This document shows, in pieces, positions 24,272 to 46,932 of a DNA stretch of 64,000 nucleotides. The stretch's first letter is position 1. Each line of letters opens with the position of its first letter. The DNA lies in the NCBI GenBank assembly GCA_963707215.1, contig CAVPPB010000001.1, forward strand, positions 832,001-896,000. Reading direction: 5' to 3'. Origin of the DNA: an uncultured Chloroflexia bacterium (lineage in GTDB: Bacteria > Chloroflexota > Limnocylindria > Limnocylindrales > CSP1-4). The translations under genes were made by a program, and so were the position numbers. Below the pieces are notes generated by a model that did no database searches, was not told where the DNA came from, and was given only the letters and a program-made list of their open reading frames with translations.

Positions 24272-24733
24272 ATGGCGACCATCCCCGCGACCGACCAGGG
24301 CGGCGGCGTCCCCCGCCGACGGTTCCTGCGCTTCCTGCTCGGCTTCTCCGTGGTCTCGACCCTGGCCATGATCGCGGCCCCGGTCGTGGGCTTCCTCCTG
24401 CCCCCCAAGACCACCGGCGGTGGGGGCGGCGGCAAGATCCTGGTCGGGACGATCGCCGACATCCCGCTGGGCCAGGGCAAGGTCGTGCCCGTGGGCAGCA
24501 GCCCCGCGATCATCATCAACACGGACCAGGGGGTGAAGGGCTTCTCGGCCATCTGCACCCACCTGGGCTGCATCGTCGCCTGGGACCAGGGCGCCGCCAA
24601 CATCGTCTGCCCCTGCCATGACGGCCGCTTCAACGCCACGTCGGGGGCCGTCGTCTCGGGTCCTCCGCCGTCCGGCCTGCCCCCGGTCGAGGTGTCGGTC
24701 GAGGGCGAAGAGATCTACGTCGTGAGCGCTTGA
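24272..24733 (+). CDS. qcrA: Rieske [2Fe-2S] subunit of a menaquinol:cytochrome c oxidoreductase
   Basis: Tat RRRFL plus TM helix; CTHLGC, CPCHDGRF, GPPP. Confidence 0.9.
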   Translation: MATIPATDQGGGVPRRRFLRFLLGFSVVSTLAMIAAPVVGFLLPPKTTGGGGGGKILVGTIADIPLGQGKVVPVGSSPAIIINTDQGVKGFSAICTHLGCIVAWDQGAANIVCPCHDGRFNATSGAVVSGPPPSGLPPVEVSVEGEEIYVVSA

Positions 24734-24735
24734 CG

Positions 24736-25827
24736 ATGGCCGTCGACAGCCCGCCCGTCACGACCGGCAAGCCGACCACCGCGGGGCGCGTCGACGCGTG
24801 GCTCGAGGAGCGCCTGCGCTGGCATCAGCTCATGGACGTCCTCCTCCACGTCCGGGTCCCGCTGCAGGCCAAGACCTTCTTCTTCGGCGGGATCACGCTC
24901 TTCCTGTTCGGCGTGCAGGTGGCGACCGGGACCCTGCTGGCGCTCTACTACAAGCCCACCCCGGAGGCGGCCTACGACAGCGTCGTCTTCATCACCAGTG
25001 ACGTGGACTTCGGCTGGCTCATCCGCAGCGTCCACCACTGGGCCGCCAACCTGATGATCCTGTTCCTGGTCCTCCACATGATCAGGATCTTCTTCCAGGC
25101 CGCCTACAAGTACCCGCGCGAGCTGACCTGGCTCGTCGGCATGGGTCTGCTGGCCGTGACCATGGGCTTCGGCTTCACCGGCTATCTGCTGCCGTGGGAC
25201 CAGCGGGCCTACTGGGCGACGGTCGTCGGCACCGAGATCGCCGGAGGCATCCCGTTCATGGGTGACTTCCTGCTGGAGCTCCTCCGTGGCGGCGCCGACG
25301 TCTCCGAGGCGACCCTCAGCCGGTTCTTCGGCATCCACGTCCTGGTCCTGCCGCTGATGCTGGGAGCGATCGTCGCCATCCACCTGGTCTTCGTCCACCA
25401 GCAGGGCCTGGCCAACCCCAAGGAAGCCGATCCGCGGCCACCGGCCGTGCCGACCGGCCCGACCAAGCCCTTCTTCCCTCACTACATCCTCGAGGAGGTC
25501 ATCGCCTGGCTGTTCCTCCTGGCGATCCTCGTCGTGATGGCCTCGATCTGGCCGGCCGGCCTGGAGGAGGAGGCGAACCCCCTGGTGACCCCCGAGCACA
25601 CCAAGCCGGAGTGGTACTTCCTGGGGGTCTACGAGCTCCTCAAGCACATCCCCTGGAAGGTCGTCGGGATCCTCACTCCCATCGTCTTCCTTGCGATCAT
25701 CGGGCTGCTGCCCTTCCTCGACCGGAACCCGGCCGTCCAGGCCCGCAAGCGACCGGTCGCCATCGCCCTCGGGATCGTCACGATCGCCGTCCTCATCGGC
25801 CTGACGATCTGGGGCTACCTGAGCTGA
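24736..25827 (+). CDS. qcrB: Cytochrome b (b6-like N-half fused to a subunit IV-like C-half)
   Basis: GGITL, RSVHHWAANLMILFLVLHM, GFTGYLLPWDQRAYWA, RFFGIH-X14-H, KPEWYF. Confidence 0.92.
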   Translation: MAVDSPPVTTGKPTTAGRVDAWLEERLRWHQLMDVLLHVRVPLQAKTFFFGGITLFLFGVQVATGTLLALYYKPTPEAAYDSVVFITSDVDFGWLIRSVHHWAANLMILFLVLHMIRIFFQAAYKYPRELTWLVGMGLLAVTMGFGFTGYLLPWDQRAYWATVVGTEIAGGIPFMGDFLLELLRGGADVSEATLSRFFGIHVLVLPLMLGAIVAIHLVFVHQQGLANPKEADPRPPAVPTGPTKPFFPHYILEEVIAWLFLLAILVVMASIWPAGLEEEANPLVTPEHTKPEWYFLGVYELLKHIPWKVVGILTPIVFLAIIGLLPFLDRNPAVQARKRPVAIALGIVTIAVLIGLTIWGYLS

Positions 25828-25840
25828 GGTCCTGAAGACG

Positions 25841-27313
25841 ATGCGGATCGGGTCGGACACGCAGCGCCGCCTCCGCCATCTCCGCCTGGCCGTTCCCGCC
25901 GGCCCGATCATCCTGCTCGTCCTCGTCCTGGGCGGCGGTCCGGCGGCGGCCCAGGATCCGGAGCCCACGCCGACCCTCATCCCGGGCCCGCCGGCACCGA
26001 CGCCGATCGCCCACCCGGGTGACTCCGGCGATGACCAGTGCTACGCCTGCCACGTGGAGCTCGACGACCGGCAGCAGGCGATCTCCGAGGCGTGGGAGGC
26101 GAGCATCCACGGCGCCGGCGGCATCGGCTGTGCCGACTGCCACGGCGGCGATCCGAGGTCGGACAAGATCACCGTTGCCATGTCCGAGGAGGCCGGCTTC
26201 ATCGGCATCCCGTCACGCGACGTGACGGTGGGGGTCTGCGGCAGCTGCCACAGCGACCCGGAGCGGATGGGCCAGTACGGCCTCCCCACGGACCAGTACT
26301 CGAAGTACTGGACCAGCGTCCACGGCCAGCGCCTCCTCGAGGCGGACGACACCCGGGTCGCCATCTGCATCGACTGCCACGGGTCCCACGCGGTCAAGAA
26401 GGCTTCCGACCCGACGGCCGACGTCTACCCGCTCAACGTCCCCCAGATGTGCTCGCGGTGCCACTCGGATCCGTCGCTCATGGAGCCGTACGGCATCCCG
26501 ACGGACCAGTACGACGTCTACGAGCAGAGCATCCACGGCCAGGCGCTCATCGGGAACCAGGACGTCCGGGCGCCCTCGTGCACGTCGTGCCATGGCTCGC
26601 ACTCCGCCCAGCCGCCGCGCAGCTCCGAGGTCGTCGACGTCTGCGGGAAGTGCCACACCGCGACCCAGGACCTCTACCTCGAGAGCCGGCATGCCGAGCT
26701 GGAGACGGTCGCGCCCAAGTGCTGGACCTGCCACGGGACGCACGACGTGGCCAAGTCGAGCGAGGCGCTATTCCTCCACCCCGCGGGCGAGATGCCCGAC
26801 TACGACTGCACGACCTGCCACGAGCCACCCGACATGACCCTGAAGCTGAGCATCGAGCAGTTCGCGAACGAGGCCGATCGCCGCTGCGACACCTGCCACC
26901 ACCCCGAATCGGTGATCTACCCGCAGGTCGTCGCCATCCATGACGCCCTGGGCGGCGCCAGCGGAGCCCAGGCCTCGGCCGAGGAGAAGATCGCCAAGGC
27001 CCGCGGCCTGGGCATGCTCGTCGGCGACGCCGAGGTGACCCTCACCGAGGCGAAGACCGCCTATATCCAGGGCCAGGCCGCGGTCCACACGACCAAGCTG
27101 ACGACCGTCACCGCCCACACCGACGAGGCGGTCGCCAAGGCGGCCCGGGCCGAGGAGCTGGCCCAGGCGAAGCTCGACGAGAGCGACTTCCGCCGGCTGG
27201 CGATGATCGTCGTCATCGCCCTCATCCTGGTCAACGTCGTCATCCTCTACGTCGTCCTGCGCCGGATCGAGCACAGCCCGAACGAGGGCCCACCGCCCGA
27301 GCCGTCGCCATAG
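25841..27313 (+). CDS. Membrane-anchored decaheme cytochrome c
   Basis: Signal peptide; 10 CxxCH (CYACH, CADCH, CGSCH, CIDCH, CSRCH, CTSCH, CGKCH, CWTCH, CTTCH, CDTCH); helical stalk; C-terminal TM. Confidence 0.92.
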   Translation: MRIGSDTQRRLRHLRLAVPAGPIILLVLVLGGGPAAAQDPEPTPTLIPGPPAPTPIAHPGDSGDDQCYACHVELDDRQQAISEAWEASIHGAGGIGCADCHGGDPRSDKITVAMSEEAGFIGIPSRDVTVGVCGSCHSDPERMGQYGLPTDQYSKYWTSVHGQRLLEADDTRVAICIDCHGSHAVKKASDPTADVYPLNVPQMCSRCHSDPSLMEPYGIPTDQYDVYEQSIHGQALIGNQDVRAPSCTSCHGSHSAQPPRSSEVVDVCGKCHTATQDLYLESRHAELETVAPKCWTCHGTHDVAKSSEALFLHPAGEMPDYDCTTCHEPPDMTLKLSIEQFANEADRRCDTCHHPESVIYPQVVAIHDALGGASGAQASAEEKIAKARGLGMLVGDAEVTLTEAKTAYIQGQAAVHTTKLTTVTAHTDEAVAKAARAEELAQAKLDESDFRRLAMIVVIALILVNVVILYVVLRRIEHSPNEGPPPEPSP

Positions 27314-27511
27314 GCCCGGGGTCGGCCGCGGAGCGACCCTCGGGTCGCCACCGGGTCGGCCGGTCCGGACCGCAACGCAGGCGTCCCCGAAGGCGAGCGA
27401 CGGTCCCGTCGCGGACCGGCGGATCGGCCTGTGCGTCGGGGCCGCACGGTCCCGCGGGGGGCGGGCCGGACGGCACTGTCCGACATATTCGCGGATACGC
27501 ATGGTCGGGGC

Positions 27512-29317
27512 ATGCACCTGCCCCGCTGGGCCCGCGACCTGGAGCTCCTGAAGTGGATCGGCGTCATCCTGCCGATCGTCTTCATCTGGGTCTTCGAGCT
27601 CGTCCGCTTCTTCGTCGTCGAGGAGAGCGTCGGCGGCACCGAGACCCACGTCGTCTCGGCGCTCGTCATGGCCGGTGCCGTGGTCCTGTTCGGCATCGGG
27701 ATGGCCGCCCTCATCGACCGGACCGAGCGCGAGCTCGTCCGCCAGAACCGCGACTTGACGGCCACCCGCGCGGTCAGCGAGGCCGTCCGGGGGAACCGCC
27801 CGCTGCCGGAGGCCCTCGCCGAGGCCCTGGAGGGGCTGGCCCGCGAGACCGGCGCCGTCGCCGGCGTCATCCGGGTGCCCGGGGACGACGGTCGCGAGCT
27901 CGTGACGCGGCAGCCCCGGACCGTTCCGGCGGGCCTGGACTGGGCCGGGGCGCTCCTCGACGAGCCGGCGTCGACCCGTGCCGACGGCCCGCGCTACAGC
28001 GAGCGACGCGAGTTGGACACGACCCTTCTCGACCTCCCGCTCGCCTCCCGGGGGCAGCGCCTGGGATCGCTGCGCCTTGTCTTCCATCCCGCCCAACGAC
28101 CCGATCTCTCCGAGGAGGCGCTGTCCGACATCGCCGACGAGCTCGCCACCGCCATCCGGCTCCACCACCTGGTCGAGGACCTCCGGCGGCGCGAGCGGGA
28201 GCGGGCCGCCCTCTACGAGGTCGCCCTCCAACTCACCGAGCGGAGCGAGACGCGCCCGGCGCTCGACTCGATCGCGGAGCATGCTCGTGGACTGCTGGTG
28301 GCGGATCGCGCGGTCGTCTGCCTGGCCGAGCCCGACGCGGCGACCCGGTCCCGGCACGCGGCCGAGCGCCTGGCGCTCGCCGACGACGGTTCCGTCTGCC
28401 TGCTGGCCCAGGCTGGCGACGAGCCCGGCCACCGCAACCCCCTGTGCCCCGTTCAGATGGAGCGCGCTGGGAGCCAGTGGATGGCCCGACCGCTCCGCAG
28501 CGCCGACGGTCACCTCGGGGAGCTCTGCGTGGTGCGGGAGCAGGGTCCGGCCTTCTCCGACGCCGATCGGTCGCTGCTGGCCGCCCTGGCCGACATGGCC
28601 GCCATCGCCGTCACCACGGCCCGCCTCAAGGAGGCCGAGCAGCAGTGGACGATCGTCGCCGAGCGCGACCGTATCGCCCGCGAGCTGCACGACAGCCTGG
28701 CCCAGGTCCTGGGCCACATCCACCTGCGGCTGCGCGACATCGAGACCCGGCTCGACGGCGCCGCCCCGATCATCGGGGCCGAGCTGGCCGACCTGGCCGG
28801 CGTCGCCGACGAGGCCTACCGGGACGTCCGCGAGGCGATCCTGGGGTTGCGCGAGACGATCTCGTCCGAGGGCGGATTGGAGGGAGCGCTCCGCGAGTAC
28901 ATCGCCAAGTACGCCCGCCAGACGGGCATCAAGGCGAGCCTGGTGTGCGACGAGACCGCCCGGGCGGCGCTGCCGCCGCGGGCCGAGGTCCAGCTGCTCC
29001 GCGTCGTCCAGGAGGCCCTGACGAACGTCCGCAAGCACGCCGGCGCGACCCGGGTCGTCGTCCGGATGCGCTGCCCCGGCGGGATGCCGATCGTCGAGGT
29101 CGAGGACGACGGTGCCGGGTTCGACCCTTCGCGGCTGGAGAAGTCCTTCAGCGGCGGGTTCGGCCTGACCTCGATGCGCGAGCGCGTCGAGCAGGTCGGC
29201 GGTACCCTCGAGCTGCATACTGCCCCCGGTGAGGGGACCCGGATCGTGGTCCGCCTCCAGCCAGAGGACCCTCGTGTCGCACCAGCCACCACGTCTCCGG
29301 ATCCTGCTGGTCGATGA
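27512..29317 (+). CDS. Membrane sensor histidine kinase (2 TM, GAF-like domains, HisKA_3/NarX type)
   Basis: ERDRIARELHDSLAQ, QEALTNVRKHA, EDDGAGFD, FGLTSMRER. Confidence 0.92.
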   Translation: MHLPRWARDLELLKWIGVILPIVFIWVFELVRFFVVEESVGGTETHVVSALVMAGAVVLFGIGMAALIDRTERELVRQNRDLTATRAVSEAVRGNRPLPEALAEALEGLARETGAVAGVIRVPGDDGRELVTRQPRTVPAGLDWAGALLDEPASTRADGPRYSERRELDTTLLDLPLASRGQRLGSLRLVFHPAQRPDLSEEALSDIADELATAIRLHHLVEDLRRRERERAALYEVALQLTERSETRPALDSIAEHARGLLVADRAVVCLAEPDAATRSRHAAERLALADDGSVCLLAQAGDEPGHRNPLCPVQMERAGSQWMARPLRSADGHLGELCVVREQGPAFSDADRSLLAALADMAAIAVTTARLKEAEQQWTIVAERDRIARELHDSLAQVLGHIHLRLRDIETRLDGAAPIIGAELADLAGVADEAYRDVREAILGLRETISSEGGLEGALREYIAKYARQTGIKASLVCDETARAALPPRAEVQLLRVVQEALTNVRKHAGATRVVVRMRCPGGMPIVEVEDDGAGFDPSRLEKSFSGGFGLTSMRERVEQVGGTLELHTAPGEGTRIVVRLQPEDPRVAPATTSPDPAGR

Positions 29318-29981
29318 CCAGCCCCTCTTCCGCAAGGCCCTCGCGAGCCTGATCTCCGGCCAGTTCGACCTCAACGTCGTCGGCGAGGCCAGCGACGGGC
29401 GTGAGGCGCTGGAGCAGGTCCGCAACCTCCGACCCGACCTGGTAGTCATGGACGTCCAGATGCCCGGCGTAGACGGGATCGGCGGGGTCAAGGCCATCCG
29501 GACGGCCGGGATCGACGTCCCCATCGTCATGCTCACCATCTCCGACGAGGACGACGACCTCTTCGAGGCCGTCCAGGCCGGCGCCAACGGCTACCTGCTC
29601 AAGAACATGCGGCCGGAGCAGATCTTCGAAGGCATCCGCGGCGCGGCCAAGGGCGAGGCCCCGGTCGCCGGCGCTGTCGCCGGCAAGCTCCTCGAGGCAC
29701 TCCGCCACGGCGGGGTGGCGCCCAGCCGGGTCGCCACCGACGCCACGCCCGAGGAGATGTCGCTGACCCGTCGCGAGGCGGAGATCCTCCAGCTGATCGC
29801 GGCCGGCCTGTCCAACAAGGAGATCGCCGCTCGCCTGACGATCACCGAGGGCACGGTCAAGAACCACGTCCACCACGCCCTCGAGAAGCTCCACCTGACC
29901 AACCGGGTCCAGGCCGCGGCCTACGCGGTCCGCCACGGCTACGGTCGCGGGGACGGCACGGGATCCGAGCCGGCTGGCTGA
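29274..29981 (+). CDS. NarL/LuxR-family response regulator
   Basis: ILLVDDQ, DLVVMDVQMP, GYLLK, LTRREAEIL...GLSNKEIA...TVKNHV. Confidence 0.93.
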   Translation: MSHQPPRLRILLVDDQPLFRKALASLISGQFDLNVVGEASDGREALEQVRNLRPDLVVMDVQMPGVDGIGGVKAIRTAGIDVPIVMLTISDEDDDLFEAVQAGANGYLLKNMRPEQIFEGIRGAAKGEAPVAGAVAGKLLEALRHGGVAPSRVATDATPEEMSLTRREAEILQLIAAGLSNKEIAARLTITEGTVKNHVHHALEKLHLTNRVQAAAYAVRHGYGRGDGTGSEPAG

Positions 29982-30167: not shown

Positions 30168-30632
30168 GTGCACGGGGGCGCCGAATTGGCGGCCGATCCG
30201 ATCTCGGTCCTGCTGCTCTACGTCAACCCGCTTCTCGGCGAGGGGCTCGAGCGCCTGCTGACCGCCGAGCCGCGACTGTCGGTGACGGCACTCCACCTGG
30301 CCTGCTCCGCTCCTCTCGCGCCGATCGCCGATCAGGATGCCGACGTGGTCATCTTCGAGGAGGGTGGTCCGCTGGGCCTCGAGCAGCTCCTCGAGCGGAC
30401 CCGTGCTCCGATCGTCATCGCGGTCAGCCTCCACACGGGCGACGTCTGGACGCTTCGGCGCGACGACCTGCGCAAGCGTTCCGGTGATGTCGTCGACGAG
30501 ATCGTGGCGACCTGCCTGGGCCGCGCCGACGCCGCGGCCCGCGCCGTTCGGGGCGGGCGCCGACGACCGGTCGCGATCGAGGTGGCCGATGACCAGCGGA
30601 CGCCGACCCCCCGAGCGTATCGCCCCGCCTGA
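30168..30632 (+). CDS. Hypothetical protein, degenerate receiver-like domain
   Basis: SVLLLYVNPLLGEGLERLL...ADVVIFEE; lacks the canonical Asp pattern and has no output domain. Confidence 0.5.
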   Translation: MHGGAELAADPISVLLLYVNPLLGEGLERLLTAEPRLSVTALHLACSAPLAPIADQDADVVIFEEGGPLGLEQLLERTRAPIVIAVSLHTGDVWTLRRDDLRKRSGDVVDEIVATCLGRADAAARAVRGGRRRPVAIEVADDQRTPTPRAYRPA

Positions 30633-30656: not shown

Positions 30657-31139
30657 ATGAGCCTTCCTTCCGGCCACCGCATGCCCCGCCGCCGCGCGCT
30701 CCTCGTCATCGGATCGAGCGTCGCCGCCATCGGCGCCACTCCCCTCGCCCTGGCCGGCTGCGAGCCGCCGGTGCCGGTGGACACGACGTTCGAGCTCGAC
30801 CCGGCAAGCCTGCCCGTGGGCGAACCGACGCTCATCGGCTTCGAGTTCGAGAAGCCCGACGGGTCGATCGGCCAGGGCTCGGCCTGGTTCCTGCGCAGCG
30901 ACGACGACGCGCTCGTTGCCTACGACCCGCGCTGCACCCACCAGGCTTGCGAGTACGCCTGGGAGCCGGCCCAGGCGCAGTTCACCTGCGTCTGCCACGA
31001 GGCCGCCTTCTCCCTGGACGGCGAGGTCTTGTTCGGCCCGCCGCCACGGCCGCTGGCTCGGTTCCCGATGGTCGTCAGCGGGACGTCGGTGACCCTCACG
31101 GTCCCCTCGAACCTGCAGGCGCCCAAGACCGAAGGCTGA
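30657..31139 (+). CDS. Second Rieske [2Fe-2S] protein (probable Tat lipoprotein)
   Basis: RRRALL plus LAGC; CTHQAC, CVCH, GPPPRPL. Confidence 0.85.
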   Translation: MSLPSGHRMPRRRALLVIGSSVAAIGATPLALAGCEPPVPVDTTFELDPASLPVGEPTLIGFEFEKPDGSIGQGSAWFLRSDDDALVAYDPRCTHQACEYAWEPAQAQFTCVCHEAAFSLDGEVLFGPPPRPLARFPMVVSGTSVTLTVPSNLQAPKTEG

Positions 31140-31369: not shown

Positions 31370-32365
31370 ATGTTCCGGGTCACGTCCCTGACCGCGATGT
31401 CGGACCGGCAGCTCGACCGCTGGATCAAGCGGATCGCGGCGCTGGCGCTGATCGCGCTCGTGGCGTTCGTGGCGTTCTACGTCTTCGACCGCTACCGCGA
31501 TCCCGGCCCGACGATGGTCGACCGCAACATCATCGCCCTCGAGGAAGTCGTCCGGGCCGACCCGGCCGACATCACCTCGCGGGGCCAGCTCGCCGACCTC
31601 TACACGGCCGCCGGCCGCTACGAGGATGCGATCGCCCAGTACGGGGCGATCCTCGAGACCGGCAAGGAGACCGAGCTGGCCCACTTCGGGCGGGCCAAGG
31701 CCTACCAGGCCAGCGGGCAGCTCGATGCCGCGGCCGCGGACTTCGAGGTGGTCGTGGGCATCGCCAAGGAAGGCGAGATGGCCCACGTCGACCCGATCCT
31801 GAATGCCGCCTACTTCGGTCTCGGAGCGATCGCCCTCGAGCAGGGCCGCCCGGACGACGCGGTCACCCACCTCACGGCGGCGGTCAACATCAAGCGGGCT
31901 GACGCCGACTCGTGGAACCTCCTCGGGGCGGCCCTGGTCGACGTCGGCGAGCCCGCCAAGGCCATCGAGGCCCTCCAGAAGGCCGTCGCCTTCGTGCCGC
32001 TCGGGTGGGTCGAGCCATACGTGACGATGGCCGAGGCCTACACCGCGCTCGGCCAGCCGGCCCGGGCGGAGTGGGCCAACGCGATGGCCGATCTCTCCGC
32101 CGGCAAGCCCGACGAGGCGAGGACCCGGCTCCTCGCCATCACCGAGGGCGAGACGGCCCTCGACGCCGCCATCGGCCTGGCGCTCATCGCCGAGACCGAG
32201 GGCGATGGGCCAGCGGCGGTGGAGTGGTACACGAAGGCGCTGGCGATCGATCCCGAGAACGCGGCCGCCCGGCTCGGTCTCGGCAGGGTCAGCGACCCAG
32301 CCGCCAGCGCGGCTCCACTGCCCGAGCTGCCCGAGCCCGGTGCCGTGGAAGGCGGCCAGGGCTGA
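31370..32365 (+). CDS. Membrane-anchored TPR protein (start may be 31397)
   Basis: N-terminal TM then multiple TPRs (LADLY..AGRYEDA, AYFGLGAIA, WNLLGAAL, ALAIDPENAAA). Confidence 0.85.
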   Translation: MFRVTSLTAMSDRQLDRWIKRIAALALIALVAFVAFYVFDRYRDPGPTMVDRNIIALEEVVRADPADITSRGQLADLYTAAGRYEDAIAQYGAILETGKETELAHFGRAKAYQASGQLDAAAADFEVVVGIAKEGEMAHVDPILNAAYFGLGAIALEQGRPDDAVTHLTAAVNIKRADADSWNLLGAALVDVGEPAKAIEALQKAVAFVPLGWVEPYVTMAEAYTALGQPARAEWANAMADLSAGKPDEARTRLLAITEGETALDAAIGLALIAETEGDGPAAVEWYTKALAIDPENAAARLGLGRVSDPAASAAPLPELPEPGAVEGGQG

Positions 32366-33512: not shown

Positions 33513-33880
33513 GAGAAAGGAGGTAAGGACAGTGAAACGCCTGGCGCTCCTGATGACAGGCGGCGCCATCTGGCTGTTCCTTGCCGCACTCCCTGCCCTC
33601 GCTGACGGCGGACCCCACGTCTCGACGATCAACAACGGGTCGCTGGGGATCAACGCCGACAGCTGTGCCGGGTGCCACCGTGCGCACACGGCACAGGGTC
33701 CATTCCTCATCAATGCCGCCGACGAGGAGGCCCTCTGCCTGACGTGCCACGGCGCGGCCGGCACGGGCTCGACCGTCGACGTCATGACCGGCGTCCAGTA
33801 CACCCTGGGCGGAGACGGCCTCCGCGGTGGTGCCATCCTTGGTGCTGCCCGCAACGGCGGCTTCGACCAGGCCCGGATCG
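33513..33880 (+). repeat. 368-bp direct repeat, copy 1 (RBS plus 5' part of hexaheme cytochrome A)
   Basis: Matches 34838-35205. I see only two synonymous differences (cctgcc vs cccgct). Confidence 0.93.
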
Positions 33881-34837: not shown

Positions 34838-35205
34838 GAGAAAGGAGGTAAGGACAGTGAAACGCCTGGCGCTCCTGATGACAGGCGGCGCCATCTGGCT
34901 GTTCCTTGCCGCACTCCCCGCTCTCGCTGACGGCGGACCCCACGTCTCGACGATCAACAACGGGTCGCTGGGGATCAACGCCGACAGCTGTGCCGGGTGC
35001 CACCGTGCGCACACGGCACAGGGTCCATTCCTCATCAATGCCGCCGACGAGGAGGCCCTCTGCCTGACGTGCCACGGCGCGGCCGGCACGGGCTCGACCG
35101 TCGACGTCATGACCGGCGTCCAGTACACCCTGGGCGGAGACGGCCTCCGCGGTGGTGCCATCCTTGGTGCTGCCCGCAACGGCGGCTTCGACCAGGCCCG
35201 GATCG
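34838..35205 (+). repeat. 368-bp direct repeat, copy 2 (RBS plus 5' part of hexaheme cytochrome B)
   Basis: Matches 33513-33880. Confidence 0.93.
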
Positions 35206-39261: not shown

Positions 39262-39473
39262 GCCCGGGCCGTTCCTCCATCCCCCGGCCGGCCGAATGGC
39301 CCCCGAAATGTGCCCGCTGACGGATAGGTCGGCGGCCTGGCCCTCCGGACAATCGCCTCAGGTGTCAATGGGCTCGCGACGCGATCGCGAGCAGGAAGAG
39401 AGGGCGATCCGATGGAAGCCATGCGAAGCGGTGGTCGGACGCGCGCCGCGCGTCCCCGCCGGAGCGGTCGGTC

Positions 39474-40644
39474 ATGACCGCTCCGACCGCGCGATCCGAC
39501 TCCCACCAGCAGGTCCTGCTGGCTCGTCTGGGTCTCGACGACCGGGCCACGCCCGAGGACGTCGAGGTCACCCATGACGAGCTCGTCGGCATTCCTGACG
39601 ACCGCACCGCGGTCGCTCCGCGCCTGGGCCCGTGTCCAGGCCGAGGCGGCCGACGAGGCCTTCGCTCTTCTCACGGACCCGGACGCACCCGGGATCCCCG
39701 GAGCCCTCTCGGGATCCAAGGGACGTGCGACGGTCCAGCCCGACGGGCCGGCGACACCTCCGGCCCGTCGGGCACCCTCGCCCGCACCGGAAGCGGCCGC
39801 CGTGGCCGCCGCGGCTGTCGCGGCCGAGGGCGCCATCGACGACGGGGCGGAGGAGCTCGAGGCGGACGAGGACGTCAGCTTCGAGGAACTCCTCGCCGAG
39901 GTCACCCCGGGCACCCACCGGGAGAGCCTGGCCCCGAAGGGCTCGAAGCCCAAGGCGAAGGGGAAGGGAGCCGCCGAGGCGGCCCCGGTCGCCGCGGCCA
40001 CCGTCGCGACGGGCCAGCCGGCCGGTGGCAGCTCCCGGGTCAAGCGCTTCGGCATCATCGGCGCCGTCGCCGTCGCGGCGGTCGTCGTGGTCGCCGGGGT
40101 CTACCAGCTCGGCGCGGCGTCGAACTCGCCCGGCAGCATCGCCTCTGCGAGCCAGCAGCCGCAGGCGAGCGCCGGCGTCGACCAGGCCCGGGTCTCCGAC
40201 CTGATGGCCAAGGTCCAGGCCGACCCGACCGATAGCGCCTCGATGATGCAGCTGGGTGACGTCTTCTACGTCGCCGGCGACTTCGGTGCGGCCGCCACCT
40301 GGTTCGGCAAGGCGCTGGCGGTCGACCCGACCGACAGCGACGCCCAGCTCGCCCTGGGGGCCGCCCTCTTCAACGCCGGCGATATGGAGGGTGCCGAGGC
40401 GGCCTGGATCGCCGTCGTCGAGCGCGAGCCCGACAACGTCGAGGCCCATTACGACCTCGGCTTCCTCTATCTGAACCAGGAGCCGCCGGACATGGACGGC
40501 GTCCAGCGCGAGTGGGGCAAGGTCGTCGAGCTGGCCCCCGACTCGGATGTCGCCCAGACGGTCAAGGCCCACCTCGACGCCTTCGAGAGCCCGGCGGCCA
40601 GCACGGCCCCGAGTGCCTCGCCTGAAGGATCCGTCGAGCCATGA
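39474..40644 (+). CDS. TPR protein, CcmI/NrfG-like (frameshift near 39590)
   Basis: Internal TM then TPRs (MQLGDVFY, ALAVDPTDSDAQLALG, EAHYDLGFLY); overlaps the ccdA start. Confidence 0.8.
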
Positions 40645-41369
40645 TCGAAGTCGGGATCCTGGTCGCGTTCCTCGGCGGGATCCTCTCGTTCGCTTCGCCC
40701 TGCTGCCTGCCGCTCGTGCCCGCCTACGTGGGCTACATGGTCGGCACGGCCACGGAAGGACCCGGCGCCCGGCGCCGCACGCTCCTCCACGGGCTAGCCT
40801 TCGTCCTCGGCTTCTCGGTCGTATTCGTGGCCTTCTGGGCCTCCATCGGGCTCGTCGGCTACGTGCTGGCCGATCAGGCCTGGATCCTGCGGCGGCTCGG
40901 CGGGGTCGTGCTCGTCGTCCTCGGCCTCCAGGTGGCCGGGGTCATCAACCTGCGGGCGCTCTGGCGCGACACTCGGCCGATGCCGGCGATGGCCGCCGGC
41001 CCCGGCCTGGGGACGGCCACGACGTCGGCTCCCGGCTACGGGCGGTCGCTCGCCTTCGGCACCTTCTTCGCCGCCGGCTGGAGCCCGTGCATCGGGCCCA
41101 TCCTCGGCGGGATCCTCGGCCTCGCGACGGTGACCGCCAGCGTCGCCCAGGGGACCGTCCTCCTGGTCGCCTACGCGGCCGGACTGGCGATCCCCTTCCT
41201 TGCCGTGGCCCTCGGTGCCGACTGGGTCGCCCACCGGCTCACCTGGGTCGGGCGTCACCACCGAGCCGTTTCCATCATCACCGGCGCCTCGCTCGTCGCG
41301 ATCGGCGTCCTGATGCTCACCGACACCCTGACCCGGCTGGCGGCCCTGACGTCGCCGCTGGGCATCTGA
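40641..41369 (+). CDS. ccdA: Cytochrome c biogenesis protein CcdA
   Basis: SFASPCCLPLVPAY and GWSPCIGPIL. Confidence 0.93.
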   Translation: MIEVGILVAFLGGILSFASPCCLPLVPAYVGYMVGTATEGPGARRRTLLHGLAFVLGFSVVFVAFWASIGLVGYVLADQAWILRRLGGVVLVVLGLQVAGVINLRALWRDTRPMPAMAAGPGLGTATTSAPGYGRSLAFGTFFAAGWSPCIGPILGGILGLATVTASVAQGTVLLVAYAAGLAIPFLAVALGADWVAHRLTWVGRHHRAVSIITGASLVAIGVLMLTDTLTRLAALTSPLGI

Positions 41370-41383
41370 CCGGAGGACATGCG

Positions 41384-42916
41384 ATGACCCAGCAGGCACG
41401 GACCGGCCGCCTCCCGGGCGACGCGTCCCCGGCCCCGGCCGAGGTCGAGCGCGATTCCGGGTTCGGGATCGACGACCTCCTGGAGCGCGCCTGGCACCTC
41501 CTCACCTCGATGAAGTTCGGGGTGTTCATCATCCTGATCCTGGCCGGCCTCGGGCTCATCGGCTCGATGATCATCCAGGCCCCACCGGGGATCGCCGCCG
41601 ACCCGGCCGCCAAGGCCGACTGGCTGGCCGAGATCGCCCCCAAGATCCTGCCCGGCATCGAGTTCCTGCAGTCGATCCCGATCGTGGGAGCGCTGGTCCC
41701 GACGGTCCGCTACGGCGACGTCTCGGGCACCTTCGACGCGCTCCAGATCTTCAGCATCTTCGACTCGATCTGGTTCCGGGCCCTGGGGGCGCTCCTGACG
41801 GCGAGCCTCATCGCCTGCTCGTCGCACCGGCTGCCGGGTCTCTGGAAGTCGGCCACCAAGCCGCACGTCGCCATCGGCGAGGCGTTCTTCACCCACGCCC
41901 CCCAGCATGAGTTCATCTCGGTCAAGGGGACGCCGGAGGAGATCCAGCAGCGGGTCACCTCGGTGATGAAGAAGCACCACTACCGGGTCGTCACCGAGGA
42001 CGACGGGGTGACCCACCTCTACGCCGACAAGTTCCGCTGGGGGCCCTTCGGGACGGTCATCGGCCACCTGAGCCTGGTCGTCATCCTGGCCGGCGCGATC
42101 GTCGGCTCGATGTTCGGTTTCCGGGACAACGGTTTCGTGGTGGCGGAGGGCTCGACGGTGCCGGTCGCCACGGATGACGGCATCTCGGTCGAGCTGATCC
42201 AGTTCCAGGACGCCTACTACACCGACACCGGCGCCCCGGCCGACTACGCCAGCGACGTCGTCGTCTACCAGGACGGTGCCGAGGTCGCCCGCCATACCGT
42301 CCGCGTCAACGAGCCGCTCCGCTACGGCGGCCTGTCGTTCTACCAGTCGTTCTACGGCCCGGCCGCGGCGATGAGCGTCGCCGACGCCGAGGGCACCGAG
42401 GTCTTCGCCGACGGCGTCCCGCTCGCCTGGAGCGATGGCGACTCCGGACGCCGCGTCGGCACCTTCGTCATCCCCGGCGCGAACCTGACCGTCTGGGTCA
42501 TCGGGACCGCCGGGACCGGTGACACGGTCGTCGCCCCGGGCCAGATGCGCGTCGAGGTCTACAACGGCAGCGACGGCAGCCCGGTGGCCGGCGAGACGAT
42601 CGACCAGGGTGACACGGTCGAGGTGGCCGGCTATGGCTTCACCTTCCAGCGGGAGATGCAGTTCACCGGCCTGTCGGTCGCCCGGGACCCGGGCACGCCG
42701 CTCATCTGGCTCGGTTCCGGTCTCATGATCGCTGGCTTCGTCCTGGTCCTGATGTTCCCCCACCGGCGGGTCTGGGGTCGCCTGGTCACCCGGCCGGGTG
42801 GCCGCGGGACCCTCTCCCTGGCCGGAGCAGGCCGACGCGACGTCGGCTCGAACACCGAGTTCACCGACCTGGTCACCGAGATCCGGGCGGCATCCACCAC
42901 GCCGACGGGAGGCTGA
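41384..42916 (+). CDS. resB: System II cytochrome c maturation protein ResB/Ccs1
   Basis: LTSMKFG, IFDSIWF, GHLSLVVIL, VRVNEPLRYGG..FYQSFY, FTGLSVARDPG. Confidence 0.9.
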   Translation: MTQQARTGRLPGDASPAPAEVERDSGFGIDDLLERAWHLLTSMKFGVFIILILAGLGLIGSMIIQAPPGIAADPAAKADWLAEIAPKILPGIEFLQSIPIVGALVPTVRYGDVSGTFDALQIFSIFDSIWFRALGALLTASLIACSSHRLPGLWKSATKPHVAIGEAFFTHAPQHEFISVKGTPEEIQQRVTSVMKKHHYRVVTEDDGVTHLYADKFRWGPFGTVIGHLSLVVILAGAIVGSMFGFRDNGFVVAEGSTVPVATDDGISVELIQFQDAYYTDTGAPADYASDVVVYQDGAEVARHTVRVNEPLRYGGLSFYQSFYGPAAAMSVADAEGTEVFADGVPLAWSDGDSGRRVGTFVIPGANLTVWVIGTAGTGDTVVAPGQMRVEVYNGSDGSPVAGETIDQGDTVEVAGYGFTFQREMQFTGLSVARDPGTPLIWLGSGLMIAGFVLVLMFPHRRVWGRLVTRPGGRGTLSLAGAGRRDVGSNTEFTDLVTEIRAASTTPTGG

Positions 42917-42926
42917 GGAGCGTTCC

Positions 42927-43811
42927 ATGTACAAGATGTCGGAATACGCGTTCATCGCCGCGATCCTGGCCACCGGCCTGGCGCTGCTTCTGTACCTCGC
43001 CTATGCCCTGTCCGGGCTGCGGGCGGCCAGGATGCAGACGGCCGGCACCGGCACGCGGACGGGAGTCCTGGCCTTCGCCGCGGGACCCCGGACCGCCGCC
43101 CTCGGGCGCTACGCCACGATCCTCGGCTGGCTGGGCTTCGCCTTCCTGACGGCCTGGCTCGTCTTCCGGACGTTCGCCACCGGTCACGGCCCCTTCGCCA
43201 ACATGTACGAGTTCAGCGTTTCGTTCGCCTGGGGCATCCTCGGCGCCTACTACTGGTTCGAGCACCGCTACCACCAGCGGATGCTGGGCCTCTTCGCCCT
43301 GCCGGTCGCCCTGGCCCTGATGCTCTACGCGATGACGATCCCGTCCGACGTGGAGCCGCTGGTCCCGGCCCTCCAGAACAACCTGCTCCTGTCGGTCCAC
43401 GTCGCGGTCGCGATCGTCGCCTACGGTTCGTTCACCATCGCCGCCGCGGCAGCCCTGCTCTACCTCATCCAGCCAGAGGGCGGCCGCTGGGGCCTGCCCA
43501 AGCCCGAAGTGCTCGACGAGATCGGCTACAAGGCCATCGTCGTGGGCTTCCCCTTCCTGACCGCGGTCATCGTCCTGGGCGCCATCTGGGCCGACGTGGC
43601 CTGGGGCCGCTACTGGAGCTGGGATCCCAAGGAGACGGCCTCGCTCGTCACCTGGCTCATCTACGGCGCCTACCTTCACGCCCGAGTCGTCCGCAACTGG
43701 CGCGGCAAGAAGTCCGCCTACCTGCTCCTCCTGGGCTTCGGGGCGACCCTCTTCACCTACTTCGGCAACCTCTGGTTCGGCGGCCTCCACAGCTACTCGG
43801 GGCTGGGCTGA
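42927..43811 (+). CDS. ccsA: System II cytochrome c synthase ResC/CcsA
   Basis: PFANMYE, PALQ, WGRYWSWDPKET, YLHAR, GLHSY. Confidence 0.93.
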   Translation: MYKMSEYAFIAAILATGLALLLYLAYALSGLRAARMQTAGTGTRTGVLAFAAGPRTAALGRYATILGWLGFAFLTAWLVFRTFATGHGPFANMYEFSVSFAWGILGAYYWFEHRYHQRMLGLFALPVALALMLYAMTIPSDVEPLVPALQNNLLLSVHVAVAIVAYGSFTIAAAAALLYLIQPEGGRWGLPKPEVLDEIGYKAIVVGFPFLTAVIVLGAIWADVAWGRYWSWDPKETASLVTWLIYGAYLHARVVRNWRGKKSAYLLLLGFGATLFTYFGNLWFGGLHSYSGLG

Positions 43812-43844: not shown

Positions 43845-44453
43845 ATGGATGCGATGCGGATCCAGGCCCCGGCCTCGCGGGGCGGGCGCTTCGGCAGCGA
43901 GCGGCTGCGGACGATCGCGGTGCTGCTCGTCGTCGGGATCGCCCTCGTCGGGGTCGCCGTCGTCGTCGAGCAGCCCGGCGGACGACGGCTTCACCGGCGT
44001 CGACCCTGCCGGATGGCGCCGCGGCTGCCGCGCCGGCCGTCGGCGCGCTGGCCCCGGACTTCCAGACGACGACGATCGACGGCACGCCGGTCAGCCTGTC
44101 GCGACTACCAGGGCCAGCCAGTGTGGCTGACCTTCGGGGCGAGCTGGTGCCGCGGACTGCCGAGGTGAGGCACCGGACCTCCAGGCCACGTACGAGAAGT
44201 ACGCGGCGCAGGGGCTCTGGTCCTGTCCGTCTCGATCCAGGAGGACGAGCAGGCGGTCCGCGACTACGCCGAGCGGGTCGGCCTGACCTTCACCCAGATC
44301 GCCGATCCAAGGACGGTCATCGCCGGCCGTTACCGGATCATCGGCGTCCCGACCCACTACTTCATCTCGCCCGACGGGAACATCGAGGAGGTCCGCCTGG
44401 GCGGCCTGCCGCCGGCCGAGATGGAGAGCCTGGTCCAGACGATCGTCCAGTAG
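43845..44453 (+). CDS. ResA/TlpA-family thiol-disulfide oxidoreductase (several frameshifts)
   Basis: TM; APDF.TTIDG, VWLTFGASWC(AD)C, YRIIGVPTHYFI. Confidence 0.8.
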
Positions 44454-44462
44454 GGACGGAGC

Positions 44463-46337
44463 ATGACGATGAGCGGCGCGCCGCGCGAGCCCGGGCAGCC
44501 CGAGGAAGGGCAGCCGGTCGAGGCCGAGCCCTCGACGCCGGCGATCCAGCCCGGGCCCGAGGCCGTCCCGGAGACTGCGCCCGAAGCCGCGCCCGTCGGC
44601 GAGGCGGCTCCAGCCGAGGACGCCGCGGCGACGCCCGAGGTCGAGGCGACGGCCGGTGAGGCGAGTCCGACCGCCGGAACCGACGGCGACCAGGCGGACG
44701 GCGACCAGGTCGTGGCCGCCGCAGCCGCCGACGATGCCGCTCCGGACGGAGCCGCCGCCCCGCCGCCATCGCGCCGGAGCCGGATCCGCCGGTTCTTCCG
44801 GCTGCCGCGGTCTCGCCGCGCGCTCGGGGCGCTGATCCTGATCGGCGGCGCTTTCGGGATCGTCGGCATGATCGGCGGCTACCAGGTCATCCACTGGACG
44901 GAGACCGCCGACTTCTGCGGCCGCTGCCACACGATGGGACCCGAGCTGGCGGCCCACGAAGCCGGTCCCCACCAGCAGGTGTCCTGCGGCGAGTGCCACG
45001 TCGAGCCGGGCGTCCAGGGCTGGATCGCTGCGAAGATGAACGGCACCCGCCAGCTGGTCGAGATCATCCTGGGGACCTTCCCCGAGCCCATCCCGCCTCC
45101 CGAGCACGACGCCCTGCCGCCCGCCGAGAGCACCTGCCAGCACTGCCACGAGGTCGCCCGTCTGAACCCGTCGGGGATGCTCGCCCGGGTCCAGTACACC
45201 GAGGACGAGCCGAACACCCGTCAGTTCGTCGGCCTGATGGTCCGGCCGGCCAGCAGCGACGTCTTCGACACCAGCCGGGGCGTCCACTGGCACGTCATCC
45301 AGGACGTCGAGTACTGGACCGACGATCCGTTCGCCCAGGACATCGACCTCGTGGAGGCGACCCAGACCGACGGCAGCACCCGGACGTTCATCGCCCAGGA
45401 CCGGATCATGGTCGCCGAGGACGCCGACCCCGACGTCGAGGCGCTCAAGGCCGACCTCGACCAGGTCCGGATGAGCTGCTACGACTGCCACAATCGCGTC
45501 GGCCATCCGATCCCGAACCCGCGCGAGGGCCTCGATGCCTCGTTGTCCGCGGGGCGGATCGATCAATCCCTCCCGTACATCAAGCGCGAGGGGATGCGGA
45601 TCCTCTGGTCGAGCTACCCGACGGTCGAGGCTGCCGACGCCGAGGCCGAGAAGCTCTCCAACTTCTACGCTCTCTACTACCCCGAGGTCATGCGGACCAA
45701 GCCGTTCGCGGTCAATGCGGCGATCGACCAGATCCAGTTCCTCTATCGCCTGACAGCGACGCCCGAGATGAAGATCACCGCGCAGACCTACCCCGACTCG
45801 CTGGGTCACACTGACTACCCGGGTTGCTTCCGCTGCCACGACGGCGGCCACTTCCTGGTGGCCGACGGGGCGGTCACCCGGACGACCATCCCGTCGAGCT
45901 GCGACACCTGCCACACCTTCCCCCAGATCGGCGGGGCGGTGGCCAGCCTGCCCATCGGCATCCCGCCGGAGAGCCACGACGACACCCAGTACGTCTTCAG
46001 CCACCGCGACTACGCGACGTCCGAGGACCCGGGCGGGACGTCCTGCGGCGAGTGCCACGCCCGCGACTACTGCGTCAACTGCCACGAGACGGGCGCGGTG
46101 ACCGTGGAGCACGACCAGATGCTCATCAGCCACGCCGAGTCGATCCGGCAGTCGCCGACCGGCAGCGAGGCCTGCGCCTACTGCCACCAGCCGGCCTACT
46201 GCTCGCGCTGCCACACGGAGCCGGTGCTCCCCGGCAGCGCCCCCTGGACCGCTGCCGATCCGGGCGCGCTGCCCAAGGGCCCGCCGGGCCTCGAGTGGCC
46301 GCTCTTCGCCGTCCTGCCCGTCGCGACCTCGCCCTGA
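44463..46337 (+). CDS. NapC/NirT-family (ImcH-like) membrane decaheme quinol oxidase
   Basis: TM then WTETADFCGRCH; CGECH, CQHCH, CYDCHNR, LPYIKREG, GCFRCHDG, CDTCH; C-terminal CGECH/CVNCH and CAYCH/CSRCH pairs. Confidence 0.88.
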   Translation: MTMSGAPREPGQPEEGQPVEAEPSTPAIQPGPEAVPETAPEAAPVGEAAPAEDAAATPEVEATAGEASPTAGTDGDQADGDQVVAAAAADDAAPDGAAAPPPSRRSRIRRFFRLPRSRRALGALILIGGAFGIVGMIGGYQVIHWTETADFCGRCHTMGPELAAHEAGPHQQVSCGECHVEPGVQGWIAAKMNGTRQLVEIILGTFPEPIPPPEHDALPPAESTCQHCHEVARLNPSGMLARVQYTEDEPNTRQFVGLMVRPASSDVFDTSRGVHWHVIQDVEYWTDDPFAQDIDLVEATQTDGSTRTFIAQDRIMVAEDADPDVEALKADLDQVRMSCYDCHNRVGHPIPNPREGLDASLSAGRIDQSLPYIKREGMRILWSSYPTVEAADAEAEKLSNFYALYYPEVMRTKPFAVNAAIDQIQFLYRLTATPEMKITAQTYPDSLGHTDYPGCFRCHDGGHFLVADGAVTRTTIPSSCDTCHTFPQIGGAVASLPIGIPPESHDDTQYVFSHRDYATSEDPGGTSCGECHARDYCVNCHETGAVTVEHDQMLISHAESIRQSPTGSEACAYCHQPAYCSRCHTEPVLPGSAPWTAADPGALPKGPPGLEWPLFAVLPVATSP

Positions 46338-46362
46338 GCGAGGTCGAGGAAGGAGTCGTCCC

Positions 46363-46932
46363 ATGCGCGCCCCGTCTGCTCCCGGAACCGGTCGGCGACC
46401 TCTTGTCGTCGCCTGGTTGCCGATCTTCCTCGTCCTCGTCCTCGGCGGCGCCGTCGCCGGCTGCTCGGCGCAGCACGACGGCAGTGGTCCGCCGGTCAGC
46501 GCCATGCCGAGCCACACGCCCGAGGCCCACGCCTCGATGGCCCCGGACGAGGCCGGAGATGTCCCGACCGCGGACGAGGTCGCCGCGGCCTGGGCGATGC
46601 GCCCCGACTTCGTCTCGGGGGCGGACCAGCAGACCCAGGCGGCCTACGCCTTCGCCGTGGCCCGGCCCGACGTCGTCCAGTGGCTGCCCTGCTACTGCGG
46701 CTGCGGGGCGATGGGCCACCTGAGCAACCTCGACTGCTTCGTCAAGCCCACCGAGGGCGCGCCGGTCGTCTTCGAGGAGCACGGCTCCTACTGCGGCGTC
46801 TGCGTGGAGACGGCCCTGATGGCCCAGGACATGCTCGCCAAGGGCGCCACCCTGATCCAGATGCGGGCCGCCGTCGACATCGAGTTCGGCGACCTCGCCC
46901 CGGGTACTCCGACGGATCTGCCGCCCGGCTGA
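46363..46932 (+). CDS. PCYCGC-motif lipoprotein
   Basis: VAGC lipobox; WLPCYCGCGAMGHLSNLDCF, HGSYCGVC. Confidence 0.9.
   Translation: MRAPSAPGTGRRPLVVAWLPIFLVLVLGGAVAGCSAQHDGSGPPVSAMPSHTPEAHASMAPDEAGDVPTADEVAAAWAMRPDFVSGADQQTQAAYAFAVARPDVVQWLPCYCGCGAMGHLSNLDCFVKPTEGAPVVFEEHGSYCGVCVETALMAQDMLAKGATLIQMRAAVDIEFGDLAPGTPTDLPPG

Follow-up and report, generated by a model that had tools for sequence, protein, structure and literature searches.

Positions 24254-46932 of a 64,000-nucleotide stretch of contig CAVPPB010000001.1, from the genome of an uncultured Chloroflexota bacterium of the Limnocylindrales (the whole stretch is called the window below), are occupied by a single block of 19 genes, all on the forward strand, which together encode 40 c-type heme-binding motifs, distributed as 10+6+6+8+10 over a decaheme, two hexahemes, an octaheme and a second decaheme (Table 1). 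Reading frames were picked by third-position G+C content (GC3), a choice dictated by the G+C content of the window, about 72%, and were verified with Pfam. A previous interpretation made from the letters alone (the sequence-only reading) had described 18 co-oriented genes with about 40 heme motifs, among them two-component, TPR and NHL genes; the co-orientation, the motif tally and the families all reappear here, and only the gene number has to be corrected. On balance, we regard the block as a porin-independent module by which a Limnocylindria cell, probably with a single membrane, exchanges electrons of its quinone pool with the exterior, the hexahemes likely being stacked.

The two tandem hexahemes belong to a family with a Sec signal that ends in ALA just before the sequence DGGPH, and with six CXXCH motifs. 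Neither of them is a single open frame in the assembly. An intact hexaheme homologue of 419 amino acids, P0002, which is 86% identical, served as the tblastn query for both genes. Its residues 1-153 match hexaheme 1 at 33532-33990 (88.9% identity) and its residues 154-419 match at 33992-34786 in another frame (84.6%); the start of the gene is accordingly placed at 33532, and not at 33436 as in the sequence-only reading. Hexaheme 2 is likewise matched in two frames, at 34857-35537 and 35539-36042. In hexaheme 1, the frame is broken by one surplus base each near 33990 and at about 34237, 34257 and 34264; in hexaheme 2, one base is surplus near 35335, one is missing near 35376, and a further one is surplus at 35536. 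The thioredoxin-fold gene of the block (43845-44456) is spread over three frames, with the WC...C region readable across frames (...WLTFGASWC...) and downstream thioredoxin-like stretches in other frames.

As assembled, the two hexahemes together have at least seven indels, and the ResA-like thioredoxin gene has several more, which might be taken to mean that the locus is decaying, i.e. that these genes are true pseudogenes and that the module no longer works in this organism. We consider this highly improbable. When contigs from four public runs were aligned to 33400-36100, three contigs from two runs had one base fewer at 33990, one contig had one base fewer at 34237, 34257 and 34264, and a contig of run X1, 99% identical and with only one other letter different, was without the base at 35536, so that five of the seven hexaheme indel sites are contradicted by contigs of other runs. 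The correct hexaheme frames have no in-frame stops, and GC3 stays high in them. The gene for a NiFe hydrogenase large subunit at the start of the window (positions 1-1117, reverse strand, running on to C1:831516) is split in the same way, into four frame pieces that look like the result of assembly indels, which points to a general consensus-error problem. The frame breaks are thus assembly consensus errors, at five of the seven hexaheme sites, rather than gene decay. Programmed frameshifting of the hexahemes was also considered, and was rejected: the sites differ between the paralogues, the relatives are intact, and other samples are without the extra bases.

The 5' parts of the two hexahemes are nearly the same. 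Positions 33513-33880 and 34838-35205, i.e. 368 bases comprising 19 upstream and the first 349 coding ones, differ at 2 places, and beyond this shared part the proteins are 56-69% identical. Either the 'head' end has recently undergone gene conversion, or the likeness was produced by the assembly. Tandem paralogues in 7 other genomes are 66-91% alike over their N-terminal 90 residues, as compared to 48-65% for the rest of the chain.

Two modules of the block are predicted to oxidise quinols, in agreement with the two entry points named by the sequence-only reading. The first is a Rieske/cytochrome b complex, with Pfam matches above cut-off for the Rieske protein and for both the N- and the C-terminal domain of cytochrome b. 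Its c-type subunit is a decaheme that occupies the place of cytochrome c1 or f and has hydrophobic stretches near residues 11-38 (signal or anchor) and 448-478 (C-terminal transmembrane helix). The second module is the NapC-like decaheme near the 3' end of the block, a member of the NapC/NirT/NrfH family by its Cytochrom_NNT match (44.2 bits, cut-off 24.1) and a hydrophobic segment at residues 119-143 ahead of the tetraheme module. It also matches NrfH in PDB (2j7a_C, E=2.4e-8) over 131 residues (123-253), and six further hemes are fused to this unit. The octaheme (seven CXXCH motifs and one CTLTCH) has an anchor, a stalk and eight heme motifs; the stalk is 94 residues long and 81% proline, serine and threonine, and the protein gives an MtrC/MtrF domain match above cut-off. 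Among relatives, a segment with at least 60% of these three residues is found in 12 of 22 open reading frame pieces, a rough count, the pieces having been chosen by partial high-scoring segment pairs.

Matches to ResB, Cytochrom_C_asm and DsbD_TM in Pfam, together with the thioredoxin-fold piece, identify a System II set for cytochrome c maturation. A second Rieske/cytochrome b pair is encoded on contig C2, its cytochrome b being 44% identical, and second copies of CcdA, ResB and CcsA are found on contig C3, at 31-42% identity. The bc-type complex and the System II set of the locus are therefore extra copies that travel with the cytochromes, and the description of the maturation set as private to the locus is borne out.

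Multi-heme proteins of this kind might also serve the ordinary respiration of a soluble substrate at the membrane surface, such as an oxyanion of nitrogen, sulfur, arsenic or selenium, and be no more than the wires that lead to a catalytic subunit whose gene lies elsewhere. NrfH/NapC-type quinol dehydrogenases usually work for reductases of soluble substrates, and arsenic-related genes lie upstream in the window. No catalytic subunit (molybdopterin enzyme, NrfA-type CXXCK heme, HAO-type protein or copper enzyme) was, however, recognised among the 19 genes with Pfam and NCBIfam. Moreover, in 44 of 47 related loci the unit that is kept contains nothing but cytochromes, TPR/NHL proteins, maturation genes and regulators, and the count of conserved histidines in the hexahemes fits six bis-histidine electron-transfer hemes. 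We judge respiration of a soluble substrate to be very unlikely.

With the hexaheme profile, 76 related loci were fetched, and the window proteins were compared with them by tblastn. All but one of these loci (75 of 76) are labelled as Chloroflexota (Limnocylindrales, Limnocylindria, 'Chloroflexia' and two 'Anaerolineaceae'), and the closest is labelled Candidatus Limnocylindrales, which agrees with the Limnocylindria-like host proposed from the letters alone. In this closest locus, 15 of the 18 locus proteins compared are 70-94% identical at the amino-acid level; the other three, namely hexaheme, octaheme and the short thioredoxin piece, reach 50-61%. The remaining locus, L067, lies at a contig end, is labelled Candidatus Deferrimicrobiaceae, and keeps the order kinase, regulator, p155, TPR, NHL, hexaheme; its label could be due to a binning error or to transfer.

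The kept gene order is kinase, regulator, p155, second Rieske protein, TPR, NHL, hexaheme, octaheme, TPR, CcdA, ResB, CcsA and NapC-like decaheme, with one to three hexaheme genes in each locus, and with the Rieske/cytochrome b/decaheme trio either upstream or downstream. Presence was counted in the 47 loci with full 10-kb flanks. The first TPR protein, the NHL protein, hexaheme and octaheme are found in all 47, the NHL gene always immediately 5' of a hexaheme, and ResB, CcsA, the second TPR protein and the NapC-like decaheme in 44. All eight of these core genes are present and co-oriented in 44 of the 47 loci. The synteny NHL-hexaheme-octaheme-CcdA-ResB-CcsA-NapC is thus recovered across related loci, and the module, called self-contained in the sequence-only reading, is indeed kept as a unit.

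The distribution of the cluster is patchy. The hexaheme profile found matches at E<=1e-20 in 16 of 201 sampled genomes of the class, the window's own included (13 of 60 in its family; 9 of 44 genera). In a sample of the phylum, it found matches in 13 of 401 genomes, only four of which are outside the class, with weaker matches. A representative library of 1.84 billion proteins yielded 1775 profile matches at E<=0.001 and 393 at E<=1e-30. The clusters retrieved from the ESM Atlas were all of a generic 'doubled CXXCH' kind, with members in Chloroflexota, Actinomycetota, Bacillota, Thermodesulfobacteriota and other groups. A longer hexaheme, in which about 120 residues are inserted between heme 3 and a GDTRNYTV motif, is common in relatives (P0022 and other members of 510-550 residues; loci L010, L012, L014), often beside the short form.

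The host genome (3.26 Mb in 5 contigs, the window lying on the contig of 912,779 bp) is 84.8% complete and 0.9% contaminated. It has no match to Omp85, LpxC or OEP/TolC; of 14 control genomes, 7, 4 and 7, respectively, had such matches. No beta-barrel family was recognised among the 19 locus genes with Pfam and NCBIfam, i.e. the locus does not encode an outer-membrane beta-barrel together with its cytochromes in the manner of a porin-cytochrome conduit. Within the limit set by a genome that is about 85% complete, the unmatched markers fit a cell without an outer membrane, and the host probably has a single membrane. The sequence-only reading had likewise noted no porin gene and supposed a probably monoderm host. 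A six-frame census of the 3.26 Mb found high-GC3 open reading frames with at least three CXXCH motifs in this locus only, apart from one heptaheme of 260 amino acids beside the hydrogenase, just outside the window (C1:829928-830707, reverse strand). Not more than 0.20 of the sampled hexaheme-region words occur in any one run, so no habitat or strain was assigned.

The hexahemes are likely homologous to OmcS of Geobacter sulfurreducens, judging by their sequences. P0002 has six CXXCH motifs in 395 mature residues, which is the size of an OmcS-type hexaheme; OmcS is described as having 407 residues and six hemes (PMC6584659, in the portion available to us). Exactly six histidines outside the motifs are conserved (H29, H52, H152, H193, H343 and H358 in P0002 numbering), which makes twelve in all and fits six bis-histidine hemes. 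Two profiles were built, a narrow one, A1, from 75 close members, and a broader one, A2, from 58 sequences that include more divergent members. A2 matches OmcS (6ef8_A/6nef) with E=4.1e-5 and 26 bits, profile positions 195-326 aligning with OmcS 132-250 around the third and fourth hemes, and weaker colinear pieces extend over hemes 1-2, 5 and 6. The surroundings of the individual hemes are also alike: CAGCH-RA-H in the hexaheme family and CEGCH-TM-H in OmcS at heme 1; CH-N-P-H-G and CH-D-P-H-G at heme 3, i.e. CxxCHxPHG; W-CxxCH in both at heme 4; CH-V-A-H and CH-R-A-H at heme 5. OmcS ranks first in two fold searches. The best-conserved part of the hexaheme family is the N-terminal segment DGGPH...CAGCHRAH.

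Two mature copies of P0002 (residues 25-419, alignment A2) were modelled with four hemes, along with three controls. The median ipSAE interface score was 0.64 (runs 0.64, 0.54 and 0.74) against 0.00 for the best control, the partners had predicted local distance difference test (pLDDT) values of at least 87, and contact agreement was at least 89%. The mark used for such dimers is reached by 20 of 30 proteins solved as same-chain pairs; among 23 proteins solved as single chains, 1 reaches it. This calibration is rough in this case, with its own alignment and ligands. The two sides of the modelled interface differ: on copy 1, it is formed by residues 119-137 and 317-411, among which are the neighbourhood of hemes 5 and 6 and a conserved C-terminus rich in proline; on copy 2, it is formed by residues 96-97, 193-195 and 28-59, the last of these holding the DGGPH tail, the heme-1 motif and His52. 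An asymmetric head-to-tail contact of this kind is open-ended, as a filament needs. His52 contacts residues 317, 339-343 and 375 and aligns with the second His of OmcS CEGCH-TM-H, the histidine after the first motif, which is reportedly the one that OmcS donates (Wang et al. 2019). In the OmcS fibre, according to the part of PMC6584659 that was available, the hemes follow the order of the motifs, and a ligand of one heme, 505, comes from the neighbouring molecule. The term 'OmcS-like', used in the sequence-only reading, can therefore be retained on the strength of the A2 match, the top fold rank and the dimer model, with the reservation that this support is modest.

The hexahemes might otherwise be soluble or wall-associated carriers, monomers or small oligomers, that shuttle electrons through the wall to the stalked octaheme as the real terminal reductase. 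Such a role of the octaheme is suggested by its MtrC/MtrF domain match and long stalk, and would parallel what has been proposed for the surface cytochromes of Gram-positive iron reducers; the fold support for OmcS is weak, and, in the part of PMC12977616 available, OmcS is the only one of the Geobacter hexaheme paralogues known as a wire. The modelled interface, however, is head-to-tail and asymmetric and not that of a closed dimer, the 'head' segment DGGPH...CAGCHRAH is what the family conserves most, and, if His52 works in trans, no conserved histidine is left to spare. We find hexahemes that act only as carriers somewhat unlikely.

In the stacked, porin-independent module that we prefer, menaquinol would be oxidised at the extra Rieske/cytochrome b complex with its membrane-anchored decaheme c-type subunit, where energy could be conserved by a Q-cycle, and, at a second entry, by the membrane-anchored decaheme with the NrfH/NapC-type quinol dehydrogenase module. 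On the outer face of the membrane, electrons would pass on to the two Sec-secreted hexahemes and to the octaheme held on its stalk. The hexahemes most likely would be joined head-to-tail, each subunit resting with its heme-1 end on the heme-6 end of the one before, and His52 (CAGCH-RA-H) may act like the OmcS histidine given to a heme of the neighbouring subunit. The membrane-anchored TPR and NHL-propeller proteins may aid the folding or assembly of the hexahemes, the extra CcdA/ResB/CcsA/ResA set would load the 40 hemes, and the GAF kinase and NarL-type regulator would switch the module on. The order of the carriers, the polymerisation, the roles of the TPR and NHL proteins and the outward flow are all inferred.

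The direction of electron flow is left unfixed by the sequence, and uptake is a serious rival. In the reverse scheme, the surface cytochromes would draw on extracellular Fe(II) or Mn(II), on reduced humics, on a partner cell or on the hydrogenase and heptaheme nearby; from these cytochromes, electrons would run downhill to a heme-copper oxidase and uphill into the quinone pool through the Rieske/cytochrome b complex and the NrfH-type decaheme. Rieske/cytochrome b complexes belong to high-potential chains; the NiFe hydrogenase and the heptaheme lie about 23-26 kb upstream of the locus; the additional, probably exported Rieske lipoprotein is kept in 43 of 47 loci; and the record title of one related locus, L049, carries 'Mn', although only as a label. 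On the other hand, no Cyc2-type or other known iron oxidase was recognised in the locus with Pfam, and OmcS-type and NrfH/CymA-type components are chiefly associated with outward transfer. Net uptake appears unlikely to us.

Several observations weigh against the module as we interpret it. The host encodes a heme-copper oxidase, the downhill end of the reverse scheme, and a high-potential chain of the Rieske type would suit electron uptake equally well. The narrow profile A1 found no OmcS at E<=10, only heme-motif matches; the C-terminal part of hexaheme 1, used as a single query against PDB, gave nothing at E<=1; and MtrA scores as high as OmcS with A2, by way of the repeated motifs. Hemes 4, 5 and 6 are spaced by 41 and 43 residues here, as opposed to 89 and 72 in OmcS. 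As MtrA scores equally and the C-terminal heme spacing is shorter, homology with OmcS is not settled. The AlphaFold2 single-chain model of P0002 (A1) is mediocre (pLDDT 65.3; predicted template-modelling score, pTM, 0.66), and the OmcS row in Foldseek is not significant (E=1.5, TM 0.09). The dimer model contained only 4 of 12 hemes and used our own alignment, and its pass may come from the predictor's memory of the solved OmcS filament, in which case it would speak for OmcS likeness and not for binding. No prolyl isomerase or channel-like gene resembling the osc helpers of Geobacter was recognised in the locus with Pfam and NCBIfam. Finally, the indel sites near 35335 and 35376 are not reported by the aligned contigs, and those of the ResA-like gene are likewise not resolved by reads.

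With these points in mind, we put forward only tentatively, as a possibility short of even chances, the most specific form of the proposal, namely that Limnocylindria may build OmcS-type filaments on a single membrane by means of Sec, a private System II and TPR/NHL helpers, the filaments being charged by the Rieske/cytochrome b/decaheme complex. If true, this would be the first bacterial cytochrome nanowire outside diderm hosts of the Desulfuromonadia type, with a minimal porin-free assembly pathway, and would suggest that the OmcS fold is ancient and arose in Terrabacteria-like lineages.

The genes of the block are collected in Table 1.

Table 1. Genes of the multi-heme cytochrome block (window coordinates); n/47 is the presence among related loci with full flanks.
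Gene product	Position	Strand	Evidence and remarks
Rieske [2Fe-2S] subunit, N-terminal membrane anchor	24254..24733	+	Pfam Rieske E=7.2e-12; PetC anchor match; hydrophobic residues 24-52
Cytochrome b, fused b6/subunit IV type	24730..25827	+	Pfam Cytochrome_B E=3.8e-56, Cytochrom_B_C E=1e-18
Decaheme c-type cytochrome	25841..27313	+	10 CXXCH; cytochrome c7/c3 and paired-CXXCH Pfam matches
GAF histidine kinase, HisKA_3 type	27431..29317	+	Pfam HATPase_c, HisKA_3, GAF; 44/47
NarL/LuxR-type response regulator	29229..29981	+	Pfam Response_reg E=2.9e-30, GerE E=8.9e-21; 45/47; start probably later than 29229
Conserved 154-aa protein (p155), family-less	30168..30632	+	Unmatched in Pfam and NCBIfam; lacks a signal peptide and hydrophobic segments; 41/47
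Second Rieske-domain protein	30657..31139	+	Pfam Rieske E=2.8e-9; RRR motif, N-terminus ending ...LAGC; 43/47
TPR protein 1, membrane-anchored	31370..32365	+	Multiple TPR Pfam matches; hydrophobic residues 17-42; 47/47
NHL-repeat beta-propeller, membrane-anchored	32362..33432	+	Pfam NHL E=7.3e-33, three stretches; hydrophobic residues 38-72
Hexaheme 1, secreted, OmcS-like	33532..34789	+	tblastn with P0002; 6 motifs across frames
Hexaheme 2, tandem paralogue	34857..36045	+	tblastn with P0002; 6 motifs across frames
Octaheme protein	36165..38963	+	N-terminal anchor, Pro/Ser/Thr stalk, non-heme domain of ~390 residues, C-terminal 8-heme domain
TPR protein 2, membrane-anchored, beside maturation genes	39574..40644	+	TPR matches; hydrophobic residues 155-183; 44/47
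CcdA, DsbD-type thiol reductant transporter	40641..41369	+	Pfam DsbD_TM E=3.5e-15
ResB/CcsB, System II cytochrome c synthase subunit	41366..42916	+	Pfam ResB E=1.5e-69
CcsA/ResC, System II heme-handling subunit	42798..43811	+	Pfam Cytochrom_C_asm E=1.2e-44; start probably later than 42798
ResA/TlpA-like membrane-anchored thioredoxin-fold protein	43845..44456	+	C-terminal piece matches AhpC/TSA, E=1.7e-7
Membrane-anchored decaheme, N-terminal NrfH/NapC-type module	44463..46337	+	10 CXXCH; Pfam Cytochrom_NNT E=2.3e-11; 44/47
PCYCGC-motif lipoprotein	46363..46932	+	Pfam PCYCGC E=3.5e-24; within flanks in 7/47

The second Rieske-domain protein is distinct from the Rieske subunit of the bc-type complex and is well kept in the related loci; its RRR motif and LAGC ending indicate that it is probably a Tat-exported lipoprotein. 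The second TPR protein has a CcmH/CycH TPR match below threshold (33.7 bits, cut-off 42), and its first 150 residues are of low complexity, its start being uncertain. In the gap of 611 bases between the octaheme and this protein (38964-39573), none of the frames gives a clear coding signal. Rfam gave no match there or anywhere else in the window, and a promoter and terminator scan stayed at chance level. In NCBIfam, no locus protein scored above cut-off, except for a paired-CXXCH domain.

Both the hydrogenase and the demethylation genes that the sequence-only reading had noticed nearby are present in the window. Besides the NiFe large subunit at its start, there are, on the reverse strand at 11698-21806, four tandem genes of the MttB methyltransferase superfamily, followed by an ABC transporter with two permeases, a solute-binding protein and an ATPase, a set that suggests that a methylated amine or betaine is taken up and demethylated. 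Genes of arsenic type lie at 3269-8145: an S-adenosylmethionine-dependent methyltransferase (3269-4177, forward strand), an ArsA ATPase (5359-6570, reverse strand) and a fusion of MerR with a low-molecular-weight phosphatase (7291-8145, reverse strand).

No description of this cluster in Limnocylindria, or of OmcS-like proteins in Chloroflexota, was found in the literature searches made; an earlier listing in a survey of osc clusters is possible, and Shen et al. 2025 (Cell Chem Biol) reportedly deal with the spread of the osc cluster. A look-up of terms in the parts available of 10.1101/2021.08.23.457424, 10.64898/2026.05.27.727921 and PMC13212565, among them two papers dealing with Limnocylindria and the Chloroflexi supergroup, gave no description of the cluster, and the available part of a nanowire review (PMC12954529) has no such cluster and does not contain the words 'Gram-positive' or 'Chloroflex'. 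The statement of the sequence-only reading that the lineage was not known to be electroactive stands as far as the cluster in Limnocylindria is concerned, but not for the phylum, which has an electroactive isolate, Ardenticatena maritima (PMC5808234, from an excerpt). Among solved bacterial cytochrome nanowires, the available portions of PMC12307469 and PMC12954529 name those of Geobacter-type diderms, the others mentioned being two archaeal structures, and they treat the exit and polymerisation of the subunits as a still open question. With its OmcS-like subunit, a very small number of helpers and a host that lacks outer-membrane markers, the cluster would offer a simpler system for testing assembly factors. 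The locus also suggests that an abundant uncultured lineage, of a Chloroflexota class common in soil, sediment and freshwater, joins in iron, manganese or humic redox cycling, and a Rieske/cytochrome b complex wired directly to extracellular cytochromes might conserve energy during extracellular respiration.

Rieske/cytochrome b complexes with a multi-heme c-type partner are known in Candidatus Methanoperedens and in anammox bacteria; their proposed role there is to connect other cytochromes with the quinol pool. Those complexes belong to another domain or phylum, have other partner cytochromes, and are not accompanied by an OmcS-like hexaheme with TPR/NHL proteins. In MtrCAB and in the Pcc and Ext systems of Geobacter, the defining component is a beta-barrel, which is absent from the Limnocylindria locus, Omp85 being unmatched in the genome. 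A parallel in envelope architecture is provided by OcwA of Thermincola and OmhA/Smh of Carboxydothermus, monoderms in which electrons cross the wall without a porin and the cytochromes are membrane-anchored or wall-associated (PMC6703420, PMC7911101, PMC7829351, as far as these were available). These Gram-positive iron reducers differ in having 9- to 11-heme proteins, for which the portions available report no relationship to OmcS, and in those portions no dedicated bc complex and private maturation set within one cluster was noticed; the accessible part of PMC7829351 does not mention OmcS, NHL, TPR or ResB.

With OmcS of Geobacter sulfurreducens, the Limnocylindria hexaheme shares a length of about 400 mature residues, the A2 match at E=4.1e-5, colinear hemes, common flanking histidines, tandem hexaheme paralogues and a head-to-tail arrangement, the last of these being here a property of the model only. 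The accessory genes beside the hexaheme, including a propeller-type protein, are reminiscent of the Geobacter osc operon; OscD is said to be propeller-like in Shen et al. 2025. The osc operon beside omcS is reported to encode folding, secretion and morphology factors (PMC13194489, PMC12977616, from the parts available). In contrast, the Limnocylindria locus is without a recognised prolyl isomerase or OscEFG-like genes, the identity with OmcS is below what a single sequence can detect, and the C-terminal heme spacing is unlike. As the host is without outer-membrane markers, there would be no second membrane to cross by way of a porin or secretion channel. To the hexahemes the locus adds the Rieske/cytochrome b/decaheme complex, the NrfH-type decaheme, the System II set and the stalked octaheme. 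What would distinguish it is an OmcS-type cytochrome machinery re-housed in a porin-free envelope, with quinol oxidases and a maturation system of its own.

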